A stretch of DNA of 64,000 bases, taken from positions 7,832 to 71,831 of the forward strand of contig JAUIEF010000006.1 of assembly GCA_030428785.1 (NCBI GenBank). Direction: 5' to 3'. Below the pieces are notes generated by a model, which worked only from the letters and a program-made list of their open reading frames with translations, was not told where the DNA came from and searched no databases. The DNA is from a bacterium (GTDB lineage: Bacteria; Planctomycetota; B15-G4). The translations under genes and the position numbers were made by a program. Shown piece after piece: positions 21,021-49,972 of this stretch (positions are counted from its first letter, which is position 1; each line of letters opens with the position of its first letter).

Positions 21021-21110
21021 GGGACGGAGGATCCGGGGGAGTCGGCGGAGGGGCGCGCCGCGGCGCGGGCCCGACCCGCGGGCGTCCATCGGTCGCGGGC
21101 CGGGTCGGGG

Positions 21111-21292
21111 CTAGCCTGACCTATTCACGGGCACCGTCGCGAGAGCGCGAATGAGTCTTCGTGGCAAGGCGGAGCGCCGCTCGCCACCGGAGGCGGGGCG
21201 TCGCCCCGTCGAGGATGGCGAGTGGTGTTCCAACGCAGTCCACGAAGGCTCATTCGCGTTCGCAGCAGGTGTCCGTGAATCGGTCGGGCTAG
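21111..21292 (+). mobile_element. CTAG-bounded long imperfect palindrome (MITE/REP-like element, copy A, 182 bp)
   Basis: Nested inverted repeats: CTAGCCTGACC/GGTCGGGCTAG, ATTCACGGGCACC/GGTGTCCGTGAAT, GCGAATGAGTCTTCGTGG/CCACGAAGGCTCATTCGC, GAGCGCCGCTCGCC/GGCGAGTGGTGTTC. Mobility is inferred. Confidence 0.75.
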
Positions 21293-21329
21293 GATGCGCG
21301 ACCCGTCCGGCCCGCGCGAGGATCCTCCG

Positions 21330-23090
21330 ATGATCGCCTGTCTGCTCCCGTTCGTCGCGCTCCTTCTCCAGGGCGCGACCGTGACGCCGCCCGCGGCCGA
21401 CGAGGCGGCCGTCGTCGCCGAGGACCTCGCCGCGGCGCGCGCGCTCTTCGAGCGCAACCTCCAGGCGATCCGCGACCGCGACCGGGAGGCCTACCTCGAC
21501 TGCTACCTCCGCTCGCCGAACCTCGTGCGCGTCGGGCCCGAGGGGCCGGAGCGCGGCTTCGACGGGCTCGCCGCCTCCCTGGGCGACGACTGGCCGGACC
21601 GCCTCGCCGCGCGCGACCTCCGGCTCGAGTGGCTCGCGCCGGGGCTCGTCTTCGGCACCTACCGGTATCACGTCGTGTTCGACGGCGTCGCGGCGCACGG
21701 CCTCTCCGAGCGGCTGTTCCGCGAGACGCCGGACGGCTGGCGCATCGCCGTGACGACGGCGCACCCCGCGCCGCCCGGCACGCCCCCGCCGGCGCTCGCG
21801 CTCTCGGGCGCGACCGTGCTCGACGGCGAGGGCGGCGTCGTGGAGGACGCGCTCGTCGTCGTGGAGGACGGGGTCATCGCGTCCGTCGGGCCGCGCGCGG
21901 GCGCGTCGGTCCCCGAGGACGCGACGCTCGTCGACCTCTCGGGGCGCTTCCTCGTGCCCGGCCTCGTGGACACGCACGTGCACTACGGGCAGTCCGGCTG
22001 GGCCGACGGTCGGCCGGACTCCTTCGACGTGCGCGACGCGTGGCCGTACGCGGAGACCGTCGCCGCGCTCCGGACGCACCCGGAGCGCCTGCACCGCGCG
22101 CTCCTCGCGTGCGGCATCACGTCGGCGCTCGACTGCGGCGGCTACGCGTGGAGCCGCCGGCTCGCCGCGGACAGCCTCGACGACCCCGAGGCGCCGCGCG
22201 TGCGCGCCGCGGGACCGCTGCTCGCGACCTTCGTGCCGGACATCCTCTCGCTGCCGGCGGAGCACCAGTTCGTGCCCATGCTCGACGAGGACGGCGTGCG
22301 CGCGGCGGTGGCGAGCCACGCCGCGCAGGGCGGCGACGCGATCAAGGTGTGGATCGTGCTCGTCGACCGGACGCTCGAGGAGGTCGCGCCGCTCGTCCAC
22401 GCGGCGGGCGCGGCCGCGCGCGAGCACGGGCTGCCGCTCCTCGTCCACGCGACGGACCTCGAGGCGGCGCGCGTCGCCGTCGCGGCGGGCGCGGACCTGC
22501 TCGTGCACAGCGTCGACGACGCGCCCGTCGACGACGCGTTCGTCGAGGCCTGCCTCGCGAGCGGCGTCGCGTACTGCCCGACGCTCGTCGTGGTCGACGG
22601 GTACCTGCGCCTCCGGGACCGCCGGGTGCCGGCGGGATTCCTGGAGCGGCTCGACGAGGTCTCGCCGTGGGTCGCGGAGCGGCTCGCCGCGCGACCGCTC
22701 GAGGAGTCCGAGGATCTCGCCGACCCGTACGCCGCCCGCCGGGCGACGATGGCGGCCAACCTCGTCCGGCTCGCGGAGGCCGGCGTGCCCGTCGTGCTCG
22801 GCACGGACGCGGGCAACCCGCTCACGCTCCACGGCCCGTCCGTGCGCGACGAGCTGCAAGCCATGGTCGACGCCGGACTTGCGCCCGAGCGGGTGATCCG
22901 GGCCGCGACCGCCGACGCCGCCCGGGCCGCGGGTTTCCCCGACGCCGGTCGGCTCCGGCCCGGCGCGCGGGCGGACGCGCTCGTGCTCGACGAGGATCCG
23001 CGCCTCGACGTCACCCGTCTCGGCCGTCCGCGGCTCGTGCTGCGCGGCGGGGTGCTCCACCGGCGCGAGGACCTGCTCGGGACGCCCTGA
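21330..23090 (+). CDS. Secreted amidohydrolase with N-terminal NTF2/SnoaL-like domain
   Basis: Signal peptide; NTF2-like segment ending DGWRIAVT; PGLVDTHVH, DAIKVW, LLVHA, LLVHS, GTDAG, GARADALVL. Confidence 0.88.
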   Translation: MIACLLPFVALLLQGATVTPPAADEAAVVAEDLAAARALFERNLQAIRDRDREAYLDCYLRSPNLVRVGPEGPERGFDGLAASLGDDWPDRLAARDLRLEWLAPGLVFGTYRYHVVFDGVAAHGLSERLFRETPDGWRIAVTTAHPAPPGTPPPALALSGATVLDGEGGVVEDALVVVEDGVIASVGPRAGASVPEDATLVDLSGRFLVPGLVDTHVHYGQSGWADGRPDSFDVRDAWPYAETVAALRTHPERLHRALLACGITSALDCGGYAWSRRLAADSLDDPEAPRVRAAGPLLATFVPDILSLPAEHQFVPMLDEDGVRAAVASHAAQGGDAIKVWIVLVDRTLEEVAPLVHAAGAAAREHGLPLLVHATDLEAARVAVAAGADLLVHSVDDAPVDDAFVEACLASGVAYCPTLVVVDGYLRLRDRRVPAGFLERLDEVSPWVAERLAARPLEESEDLADPYAARRATMAANLVRLAEAGVPVVLGTDAGNPLTLHGPSVRDELQAMVDAGLAPERVIRAATADAARAAGFPDAGRLRPGARADALVLDEDPRLDVTRLGRPRLVLRGGVLHRREDLLGTP

Positions 23091-41564: not shown

Positions 41565-41699
41565 GGCGCGCGGAGTCTGCGGGGGCGGTCGACGCGGGGG
41601 AGACCGGCCGGCCGCGGGGCGTGAGGCGGACCGAGCCTAGCGCAGCGGCGGGGGCGAATCCCGCCCGTCGTCGGGCGGACGTCGAGCGACCCCGGACGC

Positions 41700-41737
41700 T
41701 TGCGCCGCAGGACCGGGCGCCCCATCGTGGCCGCATG
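41700..41737 (+). promoter_or_regulatory. Putative leaderless promoter TTGCGC-N17-CATCGT-N6-ATG
   Basis: Spacing read directly upstream of ATG 41735. Confidence 0.4.
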
Positions 41738-42760
41738 CTCCGCACCGCTCCCCCGTCGCGTCATTCCCTCGTGGTCGTCGTCCGTGCGATCGCGTGCCTC
41801 GGGGTGCTCCTCGGGGCGGGCTGCGGCTCCCCCGCCGCGTCGCGGGACCCGGCGCCCGAGGGGCCCTACGTCCTCGTGCTCGGCACGGCCCAGGACGCCG
41901 GCCTCCCGCAGATCGGCTGCCGGGCGGCGTGCTGCGAGGCGGCCCGCGCGGACCCCGCGCGGCGCCGGTTCGCGAGCGCGCTCCTCGTCGTGGACCCGGC
42001 GAGCGGCGGACGCTGGCTGCTCGACTGCGGGCCGGACCTGCGGGAGCAGGTCGAGGCGATGCGCGGGCACCCCCCGACGCGCGCGCTGCCCGGCGCGCGG
42101 CCGCCGCTCGTCGACGCCGTGTTCCTCACCCACGCGCACATGGGGCACGTCGCGGGCCTCCTCCACCTGGGCAACGAGGCCTACGCGGCGCGCGACCTGC
42201 CCGTGCACGGCACGGCGTCCATGGCGGCCTTCCTCGCCGGGCACCAGCCCTGGGCGCTGCTCGTGTCGCTCGGCAACGTGCGGCCGGTCGTCGTCGAGCC
42301 GGGGGTGCCGACGCCGCTGCGCGGCCCGGACGGCGCGGTCGTCCCGGGGCTCACGGTCACCGCCTTCCGCGTCCCCCACCGCGACGAGGTCACGGACACC
42401 GTGGGCTTCGTCGTCGACGGGCCGAGCGCGTCGCTCGCCTACCTGCCGGACATCGACAAGTGGGAGCGCTGGGAGCGGCCGCTCGAGGAGCTCCTCGCGT
42501 CGGTGGACGTCGCGCTCCTCGACGGCACCTTCTTCGCCGACGGCGAGGTCCCGGGGCGCGCGCTCGCGGACATCCCGCACCCGTTCGTGAGCGAGACGAT
42601 CGCGCGGCTCGCGGCGCAGCCGGCGTCGCTGCGCTCACGCGTCGTCTTCACGCACCTCAACCACGGCAACCCCGCGGCGGACCCGACGAGCGCGGCGGCC
42701 GCGGCGGTGCGGGACGCGGGGATGCGCGTCGCGCGCGAGGGTGACGTCTTCGGGCTCTAG
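41735..42760 (+). CDS. PqqB-like metallo-beta-lactamase fold hydrolase (possible lipoprotein)
   Basis: LGTAQDAGLPQIGC..CC, THAHMGH, VPHRDE, PDIDKW, LDGTF, HLNHGN; LGAGC lipobox-like. No pqq operon nearby. Confidence 0.85.
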   Translation: MLRTAPPSRHSLVVVVRAIACLGVLLGAGCGSPAASRDPAPEGPYVLVLGTAQDAGLPQIGCRAACCEAARADPARRRFASALLVVDPASGGRWLLDCGPDLREQVEAMRGHPPTRALPGARPPLVDAVFLTHAHMGHVAGLLHLGNEAYAARDLPVHGTASMAAFLAGHQPWALLVSLGNVRPVVVEPGVPTPLRGPDGAVVPGLTVTAFRVPHRDEVTDTVGFVVDGPSASLAYLPDIDKWERWERPLEELLASVDVALLDGTFFADGEVPGRALADIPHPFVSETIARLAAQPASLRSRVVFTHLNHGNPAADPTSAAAAAVRDAGMRVAREGDVFGL

Positions 42761-42922
42761 CAGCCCGTGGTGAAAGTGCTTCGAGTGCGAGGGTGTCTCG
42801 GCTGCGCCAGATCAAGGCGCCGGACCGGAGGCGAATCCATGGATTCGTCGAGGATCCGGCTACGCAGAGCTGGCGCAGCCGAGGCGCCCTCGCGCCGAAT
42901 GACTTTCGCCACGGGCTGCTAG
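42757..42922 (+). mobile_element. CTAG-bounded long imperfect palindrome (MITE/REP-like element, copy B, 166 bp)
   Basis: CTAGCAGCCCGTGGTGAAAGT/ACTTTCGCCACGGGCTGCTAG, GTGCGAGGGTGTCTCGGCTGCGCCAG/CTGGCGCAGCCGAGGCGCCCTCGCGC, GGCGAATCC/GGATTCGTC. Mobility is inferred. Confidence 0.75.
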
Positions 42923-42926
42923 CCCC

Positions 42927-44525
42927 CTACTCCCACTCGATGGTCGCGGGCGGCTTGCTCGAGATGTCGTAGACGACGCGGTTGATCCCGTCGACCTCGT
43001 TGATGATGCGGTTGCTCACCTTGGCGAGCAGGTCGCTCGGCAGGCGGCTCCAGTCCGCGGTCATGAAGTCGGTCGTGTCGACGCTGCGCAGGGCGAGGAC
43101 GTTCTCGTAGGTCCGCGCGTCGCCCATGACGCCCACGGACCGCACGGGGAGCAGCACGCAGAAGGCCTGCGAGGTGCGCTCCATCCAGCCCGAGCGGGTG
43201 AGCTCCTCGCGGAAGATCGCGTCGGCCTCGCGCAGCACCGCGAGCTTCTCGCGCGTGACCTCGCCGGGGCAGCGCACGGCGAGGCCGGGTCCCGGGAACG
43301 GGTGGCGTGAGACGATCTCGTCGGGCAGCCCGAGCCGACGCCCGAGCTCGCGCACCTCGTCCTTGAAGAGCTCGCGGAACGGCTCGACCAGCTCGAACTG
43401 CAGGTCGTCGGGGAGGCCGCCCACGTTGTGGTGCGTCTTGATCGTCGAGGTCGGCCCGCCGTGCGCCGCGACGGACTCGATGACGTCCGGGTAGAGCGTG
43501 CCCTGCGCGAGGAAGGCCGCGTCGTCCGCGGCGCGCGCCTCGTCGGCGAACACGTCGATGAACACCTTGCCGATGCGGCGCCGCTTCTCCTCCGGGTCGT
43601 CGACTCCCGCGAGCGCGCCGAGGAACGCGTCCGTCGCGTCGACGTGCCGCAGCCGGATGCCGAAGCTCCCGCCGAAGGTGTCCTGCACCTGGCGCGACTC
43701 GCCCTTCCGGAGCAGGCCGTTGTCCACGAAGATGCACGTGAGCTTGTCGCCGAGCGCGCGGTGGAGCAGCACGGCGAGCGTGCTGCTGTCGACGCCGCCG
43801 GAGAGCCCGCAGAGCACGTGCCGGTCCCCCACCTGGCGACGCACGGCGGCCGTCGCCTCCTCGAGGAAGGAGCCCATCTCCCAGCTCGGGTCGCAGCCGC
43901 AGCGCTCGTGCAGGAAGTGCGCGAGCATCGGCGTGCCGTGCTCGGTGTGGCTCACCTCGGGGTGGAACTGGATGCCGAGGAAGCGACCGTCCATGCCCTC
44001 GACCGCGGCGTACGGACAGCCCTCGCTCGAGGCGAGCTTGCGGAAGCCGTCGGGCAGCCGGGCGACGCGGTCGCCGTGGCTCATCCAGACGATGCTCGAG
44101 GCCGGCGCGCCGGGCAGTCCGTCCGCGTGGAGCTCCGTCCGGCCGTACTCGCCGCCGCCGCTGCCGCGCTGCACCTCGCCGCCGAGCTGGTGCATCGTCG
44201 CCTGCATGCCGTAGCAGATGCCGAGCACCGGGACGCCCGCGTCGAGCAGCTCCGGCTCCACGAGCACCGCGTCGGGCGCGTAGACCGAGCGCGGTCCGCC
44301 CGACAGGATGAGGCCCTTGAGCTGCGTGCGCGTGCCGCCGTCGCCGCCCGCCGCGCGCTCGCCCGGCTCGGTCACGGCGAGGATGTCCTCCACCGGGGCG
44401 GTGCACGGGTAGATGCGGCAGAAGACGCCGAGCTCCCGCACGCGCCGCGCGATGAGCTGGGTGAACTGGCTTCCGAAGTCGACGATGGCGACCGCGTCGT
44501 GGCGGGCGCCCATCGGGCTCTCCAT
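42927..44525 (-). CDS. guaA: GMP synthase (glutamine-hydrolysing)
   Basis: DFGSQFTQLIARR, GICYGMQ, QFHPEV, SGGVDS, QGTLYPDVIES, KPPATIEWE. Confidence 0.98.
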   Translation of the reverse strand: MESPMGARHDAVAIVDFGSQFTQLIARRVRELGVFCRIYPCTAPVEDILAVTEPGERAAGGDGGTRTQLKGLILSGGPRSVYAPDAVLVEPELLDAGVPVLGICYGMQATMHQLGGEVQRGSGGGEYGRTELHADGLPGAPASSIVWMSHGDRVARLPDGFRKLASSEGCPYAAVEGMDGRFLGIQFHPEVSHTEHGTPMLAHFLHERCGCDPSWEMGSFLEEATAAVRRQVGDRHVLCGLSGGVDSSTLAVLLHRALGDKLTCIFVDNGLLRKGESRQVQDTFGGSFGIRLRHVDATDAFLGALAGVDDPEEKRRRIGKVFIDVFADEARAADDAAFLAQGTLYPDVIESVAAHGGPTSTIKTHHNVGGLPDDLQFELVEPFRELFKDEVRELGRRLGLPDEIVSRHPFPGPGLAVRCPGEVTREKLAVLREADAIFREELTRSGWMERTSQAFCVLLPVRSVGVMGDARTYENVLALRSVDTTDFMTADWSRLPSDLLAKVSNRIINEVDGINRVVYDISSKPPATIEWE

Positions 44526-49895: not shown

Positions 49896-49972
49896 CGGGG
49901 TGTGGCTCAGTTTGGTAGAGCGCAGCGTTCGGGACGCTGAGGTCGCTGGTTCAAATCCAGTCACCCCGACCA
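49896..49972 (+). tRNA. tRNA-Pro (anticodon CGG)
   Basis: Acceptor stem CGGGGTG/CACCCCG; D arm GCTC/GAGC; anticodon arm CAGCG-TTCGGGA-CGCTG; T loop GTTCAAATC; encoded CCA. Confidence 0.97.

Follow-up and report, generated by a model that had tools for sequence, protein, structure and literature searches.

The window, the whole stretch of 64,000 nucleotides that was analyzed, contains two short elements, A1 and A2, each bounded by CTAG on both sides. A1 (21111..21292, + strand) measures 182 bp with both CTAGs and folds as a rod; its bounds are those of a unit seen in more than 11 copies in a related genome (G005), and its sense strand, as set by the core motifs, is the + strand. The left CTAG (21111..21114) is a 4-bp flanking repeat, the target site, and the right CTAG (21289..21292) is given by the sequence and by the alignment of the G005 copies. 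Inside them lie the left terminal inverted repeat (21115..21132, +; CCTGACCTATTCACGG..) and the right one (21271..21288, +; reverse complement CCCGACCGATTCACGG), which matches both the left repeat and IS1380-type ends. Compared with the left end of L278, an insertion sequence of the IS1380 family, the left repeat of A1 has 16 identical nucleotides and then one mismatch within the next three. The apex of the rod is formed by a conserved core of 74 nt (21165..21238, +), recognized by motif scan, by alignments and by a covariance model (R1, 42.1 bits); in order, loop 1 (CAAGGCG / AACGCAG) is followed by a long inner helix, then by loop 2 (CCGGAGGCG / CGTCGAGGAT) and finally by a hairpin that caps the rod. 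An amidohydrolase gene (21330..23090, +; PF01979, 75.7 bits) lies 3' of A1, outside the element. The ORFs of at least 80 codons that overlap A1 are exclusively long frames running through it, and these were read as spurious because the insert is missing from the same site in congeners.

A2 (42757..42922, + strand, which is also its sense strand) is 166 bp long with both CTAGs, likewise folds as a rod, and has bounds that follow from copies in the genome G012. Its left CTAG (42757..42760) supplies the stop codon, TAG at 42758-42760, of the metallo-beta-lactamase-fold gene located 5' of it (41621..42760, +; PF12706, 95.1 bits), which is otherwise outside the element. The right CTAG (42919..42922) ends 4 nt ahead of the stop codon of the converging guaA (GMP synthase; 42927..44525, - strand; PF00958 and PF00117), which lies 3' of A2 and also outside it. 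The left terminal inverted repeat (42761..42779, +; CAGCCCGTGGTGAAAGTGC) matches the ends of the IS1182-like elements L109, L111, L116, L117 and L126, and the right one (42900..42918, +) has the reverse complement CAGCCCGTGGCGAAAGTCA; in both elements these repeats are about 18-19 nt long. The conserved apical core of A2 comprises 55 nt (42813..42867, +), as delineated by motif scan, R1 and covariation, and R1 scores it with 116.8 bits on the + strand versus 55.2 bits on the - strand.

As RNA, A1 with 6-nt flanks folds at -145.2 kcal/mol on the + strand (z -12.8; none of 200 shuffles equally stable) versus -112.8 on the - strand, and A2 at -144.3 kcal/mol on the + strand (z -15.2) versus -124.7 on the - strand. 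Common to both are the motif pairs CAAGGCG...ACGCAG and ACCGGAGGCG-hairpin-CGTCGAGGAT, while the stems between them are unlike in sequence and length. An earlier note, made from the letters of the window, had given these coordinates, CTAG ends, shared loop motifs and differing stems, and all of these hold; the coordinates are exact, and related copies in other genomes have BLAST boundaries at 21109-21293 (A1) and 42757-42922 (A2). Its statement that every mismatch in the stem of A1 is a G-T holds for the nine G.U pairs of the fold, but not for one A.C apposition and four other appositions in symmetric loops. A match to a described Rfam family, which by its account would have removed the novelty, was not obtained: at gathering score the 64-kb window yielded a single hit, a tRNA, and no family for A1 or A2. 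In E-value mode, A1 and A2 retrieved far sub-threshold microRNA-hairpin models, with one ribosomal-leader model beside A1, and four core loci of other taxa had no match at E <=0.1.

The genome (G000; 5.68 Mb in 321 contigs, 73.9% G+C, 85% complete) contains about 20 copies, of which 17 were found as cores with R1 and nhmmer and three, all A1-type, by motif scan; partial copies occur exclusively at contig ends. They fall into three subfamilies: A1-type, A2-type and a third one without CTAG ends. Because MAFFT misaligned A1 against A2, R1 was built on nine 104-nt cores of equal length from the A2-type and CTAG-less subfamilies only, and A1-type copies therefore score low (about 42 bits) and are missed by genome searches. 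Loose regular expressions for the core are uninformative at 74% G+C, where two of them gave 712 and 2066 matches. R1 matches were present in 21 of 61 related genomes, with a per-genome maximum of at least 64 where no more than 65 candidates were scored in each genome. By family, they occurred in 8/15 genomes of f1, 5/12 of f2, 2/8 of f4 and 4/5 of f5, and one weak match was obtained outside the order. In G005, the A1 terminal repeat has 15 forward and 15 reverse matches, corresponding to about 15 A1-type copies; the 11 that were aligned are near-identical within unrelated flanks, and 10 of them carry CTAG at both ends and one carries CAAG at one end.

The gene upstream of A2 has CTCTAG as its last letters in G000 and likewise in the relatives G001 and G002, and the element is present in G000 only, between two CTAGs; the left CTAG of A2 thus pre-existed as the target. 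The empty sites of G001 and G002 have a single CTAG, and the gene is separated from guaA by 19 nt (G001) or 80 nt (G002). At its own locus A1 is also absent from G001 and G002, whose intergenic DNA is too diverged there to offer a clean empty-site junction. G002, G001 and G005 also lack a further A1-type copy of G000, located on contig C83. This empty site, the one clean example for the A1 type, reads TCAG, and the stop of the neighboring gene is TCA in the relatives versus the CTA of the element's CTAG in G000, which makes duplication of the target less evident for A1. When 20 loci from other genomes were compared with G000, not a single insertion site coincided with that of a G000 copy, and at two of these loci both flanks adjoin in G000 with no copy between them. 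As genomes have no insertions in common, the conserved state of the core must reflect the success of element lineages and not the upkeep of single loci by the host.

As short non-coding units with terminal inverted repeats and 4-bp CTAG flanks, dispersed and missing at the corresponding sites of relatives, A1 and A2 are very probably MITEs, that is, non-autonomous DNA transposons. It could be argued that they are free-standing small-RNA genes or plain terminators, which are repeated and not mobile. The rods are very stable, and stop codons adjoin many of the copies (the stop of a converging gene is no more than 25 nt away from the 3' end in 19 of 37). However, terminal repeats, 4-bp flanks, empty sites, near-identical bursts and ends shared with insertion sequences all indicate mobility, none of the copies is retained at orthologous positions, and neither A1 nor A2 has a run of T 3' of the hairpin. 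This alternative is therefore very improbable.

The insertion sequences from which the ends derive could be assigned for both elements. A2-type parents are IS1182-like elements of 1,470-1,498 bp in the genomes G014, G015, G029 and G030. The ends of L109, L111, L116, L117 and L126 read CAGCCCGT(T/G)G..GAA.GT and are flanked by 4-bp YTAR repeats, in the form of CTAA..CTAA, CTAG..CTAG or near-repeats, with the non-palindromic CTAA..CTAA surrounding L117 and L126. These elements encode DUF772 plus a DDE transposase (IS5 superfamily). Among NCBIfam models, NF033551 (IS1182) fits the intact L111 and L116 proteins best, at 163.6 and 183.8 bits and thus below its cut-off of 270, and the pieces of L109 match the Pfam families DUF772 and DDE_Tnp_1_6. 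The variant of the repeat changes jointly in insertion sequence and MITE, being GTTGAAGAA in both in G034 and GTGGGGAAAGTGCC in both in G015, and the insertion sequence has two ends that differ in the same way as the two arms of A2 (GTGC versus GTCA). A1-type parents were recovered by a pattern scan of metagenomes that returned 42 stretches. It gave two elements, L278 and L304 (1,699 and 1,709 bp); they are flanked by CTAG, and their left ends are the repeats of A1 and of the G005 copies. Their transposases reach 324.3 and 356.9 bits against NF033539 (IS1380; cut-off 180) and 375 and 403 bits against PF13701. Judged from these sequences, A1 and A2 are two MITE families with a shared core, and not one family by their ends.

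The interior tells a different story from the ends. The apical core is absent from these IS1182-like and IS1380-family insertion sequences, and the interior of A1 is unrelated to that of the latter. The same IS1380-type ends also delimit MITEs that have no core (L272, L293) and truncated MITEs (L283, L298), and the core-less ones imply that an element can exist without the core. Neither an IS1182-like nor an IS1380 helper was found in the 85% complete G000 assembly, and no autonomous partner of the A1 type was found within G005, where unpaired ends sit at contig ends. Among the 61 genomes, 16 have an IS1182-like transposase and 21 the element, with only 6 in common; this co-occurrence is not informative. 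Genes for Y1/HUH transposases (PF01797) were not found in G000, G005, G012 or G015, and two matches were obtained in G025 (assemblies 73-92% complete). An origin as REP/REPIN-type repeats, for which a RAYT (Y1) transposase would be the mobilizing enzyme, would account for long hairpin repeats in intergenic DNA, but is hardly credible given the lack of a Y1_Tnp gene in the first four of these assemblies, arms that are not themselves short palindromes in A1 or A2, and ends that match DDE-transposase insertion sequences.

With the copy number in G000, the R1 matches in the relatives, the single-CTAG empty sites at the A2 locus, and helpers found neither in the window nor in the assembly, the earlier note's picture of a non-autonomous mobile family, whose further copies a covariance model would reveal, is borne out. 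Two of its ideas have to be given up. It had supposed recognition by a protein that reads single strands, whereas the ends are ordinary terminal inverted repeats of DDE transposases with 4-bp CTAG/YTAR flanks; and it had treated the CTAG ends as the signature of the family, whereas they are target-site repeats and the third subfamily in G000 lacks them. It had proposed to look for a transposase, HUH or RT gene flanked by the same ends; such ends surround the IS1182-like and IS1380 DDE transposases, and four of the five copy-bearing genomes searched had no PF01797 match.

Besides the converging stops that lie close to many 3' ends, a stop codon on the same strand is found within 25 nt of the 5' end in 9 of 37 copies. 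In the Planctomycetota sample, 11 copies are convergent with the neighboring gene, 8 antisense co-directional, 6 divergent and 3 sense co-directional, and in Guyparkeria 6 are in sense and 4 in antisense orientation. A bias in orientation to genes, strong in a first small sample, was weak in the larger count and was dropped. With this mixed orientation, many copies would be read antisense by read-through from genes. Mixed orientation, and likewise the core-less and truncated MITEs that share the ends, speak against a role of the elements as RNA.

The same apical core of 55-74 nt is found in A1-type and A2-type copies, in the CTAG-less third subfamily and in a 265-bp MITE of Guyparkeria. In an alignment of 57 core sequences, from which the A1-type copies with their longer inner helix were left out, 92.4% of the cells are paired; shuffling lowers this to 73.3%, and none of 500 shuffles attains the observed value. 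Such cell counts overstate the number of independent events because copies within a subfamily share ancestry. Changes on both sides were seen in 17 of 23 pairs, and controls slid along the alignment pair at 26-44%; covariation and symmetry of the arms as such are expected in any DNA palindrome. The two strands differ. G.U outnumbers A.C by 101:11 in the core, and when the outer arms of 39 representatives (one of the 40 given was skipped) were aligned arm against arm, independently of any folding program, 184 transitions leave a G.U on the sense strand versus 37 that leave an A.C, a ratio of about 5:1. The sense fold was the more stable one in all 51 representative copies. Both the strand asymmetry and the covariation around conserved asymmetric loops, which the earlier note had read from two copies, thus extend to the family as a whole.

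Loop 1 is pseudo-symmetric, with RAGGM over RACGM. Nearly invariant in it are A27.G76 (53/57), G28-C75 (56/57) and G29.A74 (56/57). The flanking pair 26/77 is A.C in 43/57 sequences, G.A in 8/57 and G-C in none of the 57, and the pair 30/73 is C.A in 48/57 and A.G in 6/57. These two pairs switch from A.C to G.A in step, and the joint switch recurs within the Guyparkeria copies. A.C and G.A are interchangeable in sheared-pair geometry. Loop 2 consists of G39.A63 (54/57), a bulged variable base and A41.G62 (53/57). From these patterns, the "loops" of the core can be read as continuous non-canonical helices in which conserved appositions, purine-purine and A.C, follow one another. Wobble G.T and sheared G.A pairs are not confined to RNA; single-stranded DNA forms them as well.

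The core extends beyond the Planctomycetota. A 23-letter core pattern occurred in at least 113 stretches of a genome collection, and R1 matched 32 loci among the 80 scanned. According to their titles, the matching records comprise MAGs of Planctomycetota and Phycisphaerales, MAGs of Acidobacteria (with A2-type ends), a deltaproteobacterial MAG, a Pseudohongiellaceae MAG, Halothiobacillaceae and three cultured Guyparkeria species; taxon labels of MAGs can be wrong, whereas those of the Guyparkeria isolates are not open to this error. In Guyparkeria sp. TX1, R1 matched the complete genome (2.3 Mb) 20 times, 10 times on the + and 10 times on the - strand, and in each half of the chromosome as deposited the copies are distributed about evenly over the two strands. 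Here the core rides in a MITE of about 265 bp, the terminal repeats of which are quite different from those of A1 and A2. A search for an autonomous partner retrieved repeat matches that pair only at distances of about 245-320 nt; three ends had no mate, and no two formed a pair at 1-2 kb. The bias toward G.U over A.C follows the element and not the strand in Guyparkeria (14:4 in + copies, 15:2 in - copies), with largely inherited positions contributing to both counts. Classification as an IS200/IS605-type element (PATE) was considered and rejected in view of the 10 + and 10 - copies. No match to A2 was found by blastn in plasmids, and the literature searched, which included PMC11578231 without its supplements, yielded no description of the core or of any MITE from Planctomycetota.

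These patterns bear on the question of which form of nucleic acid is under selection. If the core acted as double-stranded DNA, bound or bent by an IHF- or HU-like architectural protein of the host, which might promote synapsis of repeats about 130 bp apart, the complementarity of the arms would simply follow from maintenance of the palindrome, and the excess of G.U would be a mutational asymmetry. The start of loop 1, (G/A)ATCAA, resembles the core of the IHF consensus. IHF sites are known in MITEs, as stated in the available part of a paper (PMC3184786), selection seems to act on the element and not on the host, as none of the 20 loci shares an insertion, and the orientation to genes is mixed. 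A double-stranded site would, however, hardly explain why positions about 50 bp apart change in step, from A.C to G.A and never to G-C, in several subfamilies and in Guyparkeria, or why the 5:1 G.U excess follows the orientation of the element on both strands; since copies occur in all orientations, mutation linked to replication or transcription would hardly yield this excess. Such a site is therefore an unlikely explanation. Alternatively, the core might be extruded as a single-stranded DNA hairpin and be read by a strand-specific recombinase or nuclease, comparable to integron attC sites or the ends of IS200/IS605 elements. Such a hairpin would fit the strand-specific pairing, the variable stems and the conservation of positions that are unpaired or non-canonical, and DNA stably accommodates G.T and sheared G.A pairs. 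Yet the terminal repeats and flanking repeats are of the ordinary DDE type, matching insertion sequences are present, PF01797 was not found in G000, G005, G012 and G015, and the 20 Guyparkeria copies are spread evenly over both strands, unlike elements that target the lagging strand. A single-stranded DNA role of the core is thus quite improbable.

The explanation that we favor, with a probability of roughly 0.7 for the whole, is that A1 and A2 are MITEs moved by helpers and equipped with a core that matters at the level of RNA. IS1182-like and IS1380 transposases would act in trans and cut and paste the MITEs into CTAG/YTAR sites. CTAG is scarce in this genome, with 547 occurrences observed versus about 13,200 expected from base composition; as CTAG/YTAR sites are rare at 74% G+C and often overlap TAG stop codons, copies would pile up at the ends of genes. 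For the second part of this explanation, an RNA-level role of the core in cis, the odds are about even. A MITE copy may be transcribed together with the neighboring gene, and the rod might then serve as a protein-recognized 3'-end or terminator-like structure, which we regard as a toss-up. By making insertions at gene ends tolerable, the rod could allow lineages that keep the core to out-survive those that lose it.

More tentatively, and in our estimate doubtful, the apical rod may be an independent RNA module, a loop-E-like helix of tandem sheared purine pairs recognized by a protein, which was captured by or moved between MITEs of at least two unrelated transposase families. Its carriers would be the IS1182-like and IS1380 MITEs and a third scaffold in Guyparkeria. 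The persistence of such a module across phyla might be due to a benefit to the elements; it could, for instance, recruit an RNA-binding factor or nuclease that all hosts possess, and the recruited factor could settle the fate of transcripts that enter an insertion. If so, MITEs would be vehicles for a conserved cis-acting RNA device and not mere deletion derivatives of insertion sequences, and if the core is a real RNA device at all, it would represent a widespread structured RNA that has no Rfam family.

A1 and A2 are a known kind of MITE with an unexplained conserved cargo. In the usual MITE, the ends are kept and the interior drifts. Here, the ends come from two transposase families, while the core hardly varies between Planctomycetota and a cultured gammaproteobacterium. 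We take as new that one core resides in MITEs of two transposase families and shows matched non-canonical changes, and also the IS1380 parentage of A1, for which no priority is claimed over any IS1380-derived MITEs that may be in print. For genome annotation it is relevant that the elements provide stop codons or lie next to them, and that assemblies break at these elements, leaving contig ends there.

As mobile DNA, IS1182-derived MITEs that land in CTAG are ordinary, with MITEPye1 of Paracoccus yeei as a precedent (PMC11578231). In the available part of its description, MITEPye1 is an IS1182-derived, non-coding and intergenic MITE of 159 bp with 4-bp direct repeats and 18-bp IS1182-like terminal repeats; it is predicted to form a long RNA stem-loop of -47.9 kcal/mol, has 1-3 chromosomal copies and was proposed to be mobilized in trans (PMC11578231). 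A2 fits this account point by point, but folds at -144 kcal/mol and has relatives that hold tens of copies. That account, compared with A2 by description only, mentions no conserved core, covariation or strand asymmetry in the part available (PMC11578231). For A1, the corresponding known family is IS1380 (NF033539), with which it shares left ends and CTAG flanks, A1 itself having no transposase gene.

The closest precedent for a MITE-like element under structural selection at the RNA level is bcr1 of the Bacillus cereus group, which the accessible portion of the paper cited for IHF sites describes as a mobile repeat roughly 155 bp in length that has short direct repeats and whose distribution in genomes is not conserved; it is transcribed, and compensatory base-pair changes preserve its RNA structure (PMC3184786). 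It differs in its cruciform-like two-hairpin shape, its 5-bp repeats and its restriction to one genus group, as far as the same source goes (PMC3184786). A1 and A2, in contrast, form a single rod, and their core occurs in MITEs of two transposase families and in several labeled phyla. Correia/NEMIS and ERIC are described there as palindromic MITEs with long hairpins, often situated at the 3' ends of genes and co-transcribed with them, which can carry functional motifs such as IHF sites and promoters (PMC3184786). A1 and A2 resemble them as palindromic MITEs that fold as long hairpins. For A2, the likeness to ERIC in the loop sequences that the earlier note had suggested is not reflected in similarity at the nucleotide level, as A2 had no blastn match at E <=0.01 in 20,395 records of complete genomes of E. 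coli, where ERIC resides. Correia/NEMIS and ERIC have no known cognate transposases, whereas for A1 and A2 both parents have been identified.

CTAG is scarce in the uncultured Planctomycetota genome that contains the window (G000; the window is contig C250, 7832-71831). Across the whole genome, 547 occurrences were seen versus approximately 13,200 expected from base composition, which corresponds to a roughly 24-fold under-representation, and both CTAG-targeting MITE families therefore find few landing sites in this organism. Many of these landing sites are stop codons. In a pair of A2-type copies (MITEs with IS1182-like ends) on contig C125 (13643-13819 and 14216-14379; loci L003, L004, and L011), the two members share the same orientation and lie about 400 nt apart, and the pair closely follows the end of a gene. 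A1, the 182-bp MITE with IS1380-type ends, and an A1-type copy on contig C112 are each closely followed by the start of a gene on the same strand, and have in common the 8 nt GATGCGCG immediately after the 3' CTAG (window 21293-21300 for A1). This octamer is found neither at the C83 copy nor at the copies in the related genome G005, and its presence in A1 and the C112 copy could be due to chance or to a duplication that included the flank.

The 5' flanks were also compared for eight G000 copies that lack CTAG ends (contigs C52, C194, C207, C8, C155, C218, C198, and C72). No sequence homology was detected among these eight flanks. In each of them a C- or CT-rich tract abuts the 5' side of the hairpin; in the C8 copy this tract consists of repeated CCCT units, and tandem units of about 19 nt are located upstream of the C198 copy.

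Two further CTAG-flanked insertion sequences of the IS1380 family, in the related genomes G012 (L107, contig C25, 1091-2779) and G005 (L108, contig C80, 1021-2832), carry terminal repeats other than those of A1. The L108 element directly abuts sequence whose start resembles the end of an A2-type MITE, and a separate, different palindrome with 57-nt arms is found at 855-1012 of the same locus. In the related genome G015, an IS1182-like element (L109, contig C7, 1265-2762) has A2-type ends. This copy may be inactive, because its transposase reading frame is broken by one in-frame TAG.

On metagenome contigs, the IS1380-type ends of A1 also delimit a 182-bp MITE without the structured core (L272, 2001-2182; L293, 5-186), whose interior is unrelated to that of A1 and folds weakly (-72 kcal/mol). 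Short derivatives of 103 bp (L283) and 120 bp (L298) retain only part of loop 1 of the core. Many contigs in G005, G012, and the metagenomes terminate approximately 30-125 nt inside MITE copies. Thus, short-read assemblies are interrupted at these repeats, and the copy counts are too low.

The sole Rfam match within the 64-kb window is a tRNA gene (49896-49969; 67.3 bits). In Guyparkeria, the approximately 265-bp MITE (L250 and the other 19 loci of L243-L262) contains a second hairpin, whose arms, as judged by eye in the alignment, resemble the loop-1 motifs in reverse complement. This hairpin therefore has the appearance of a partial core copy in inverted orientation. Weak opposite-strand matches to the covariance model of the core, of the same kind as the second hairpin in Guyparkeria, are present in L132 and L201.
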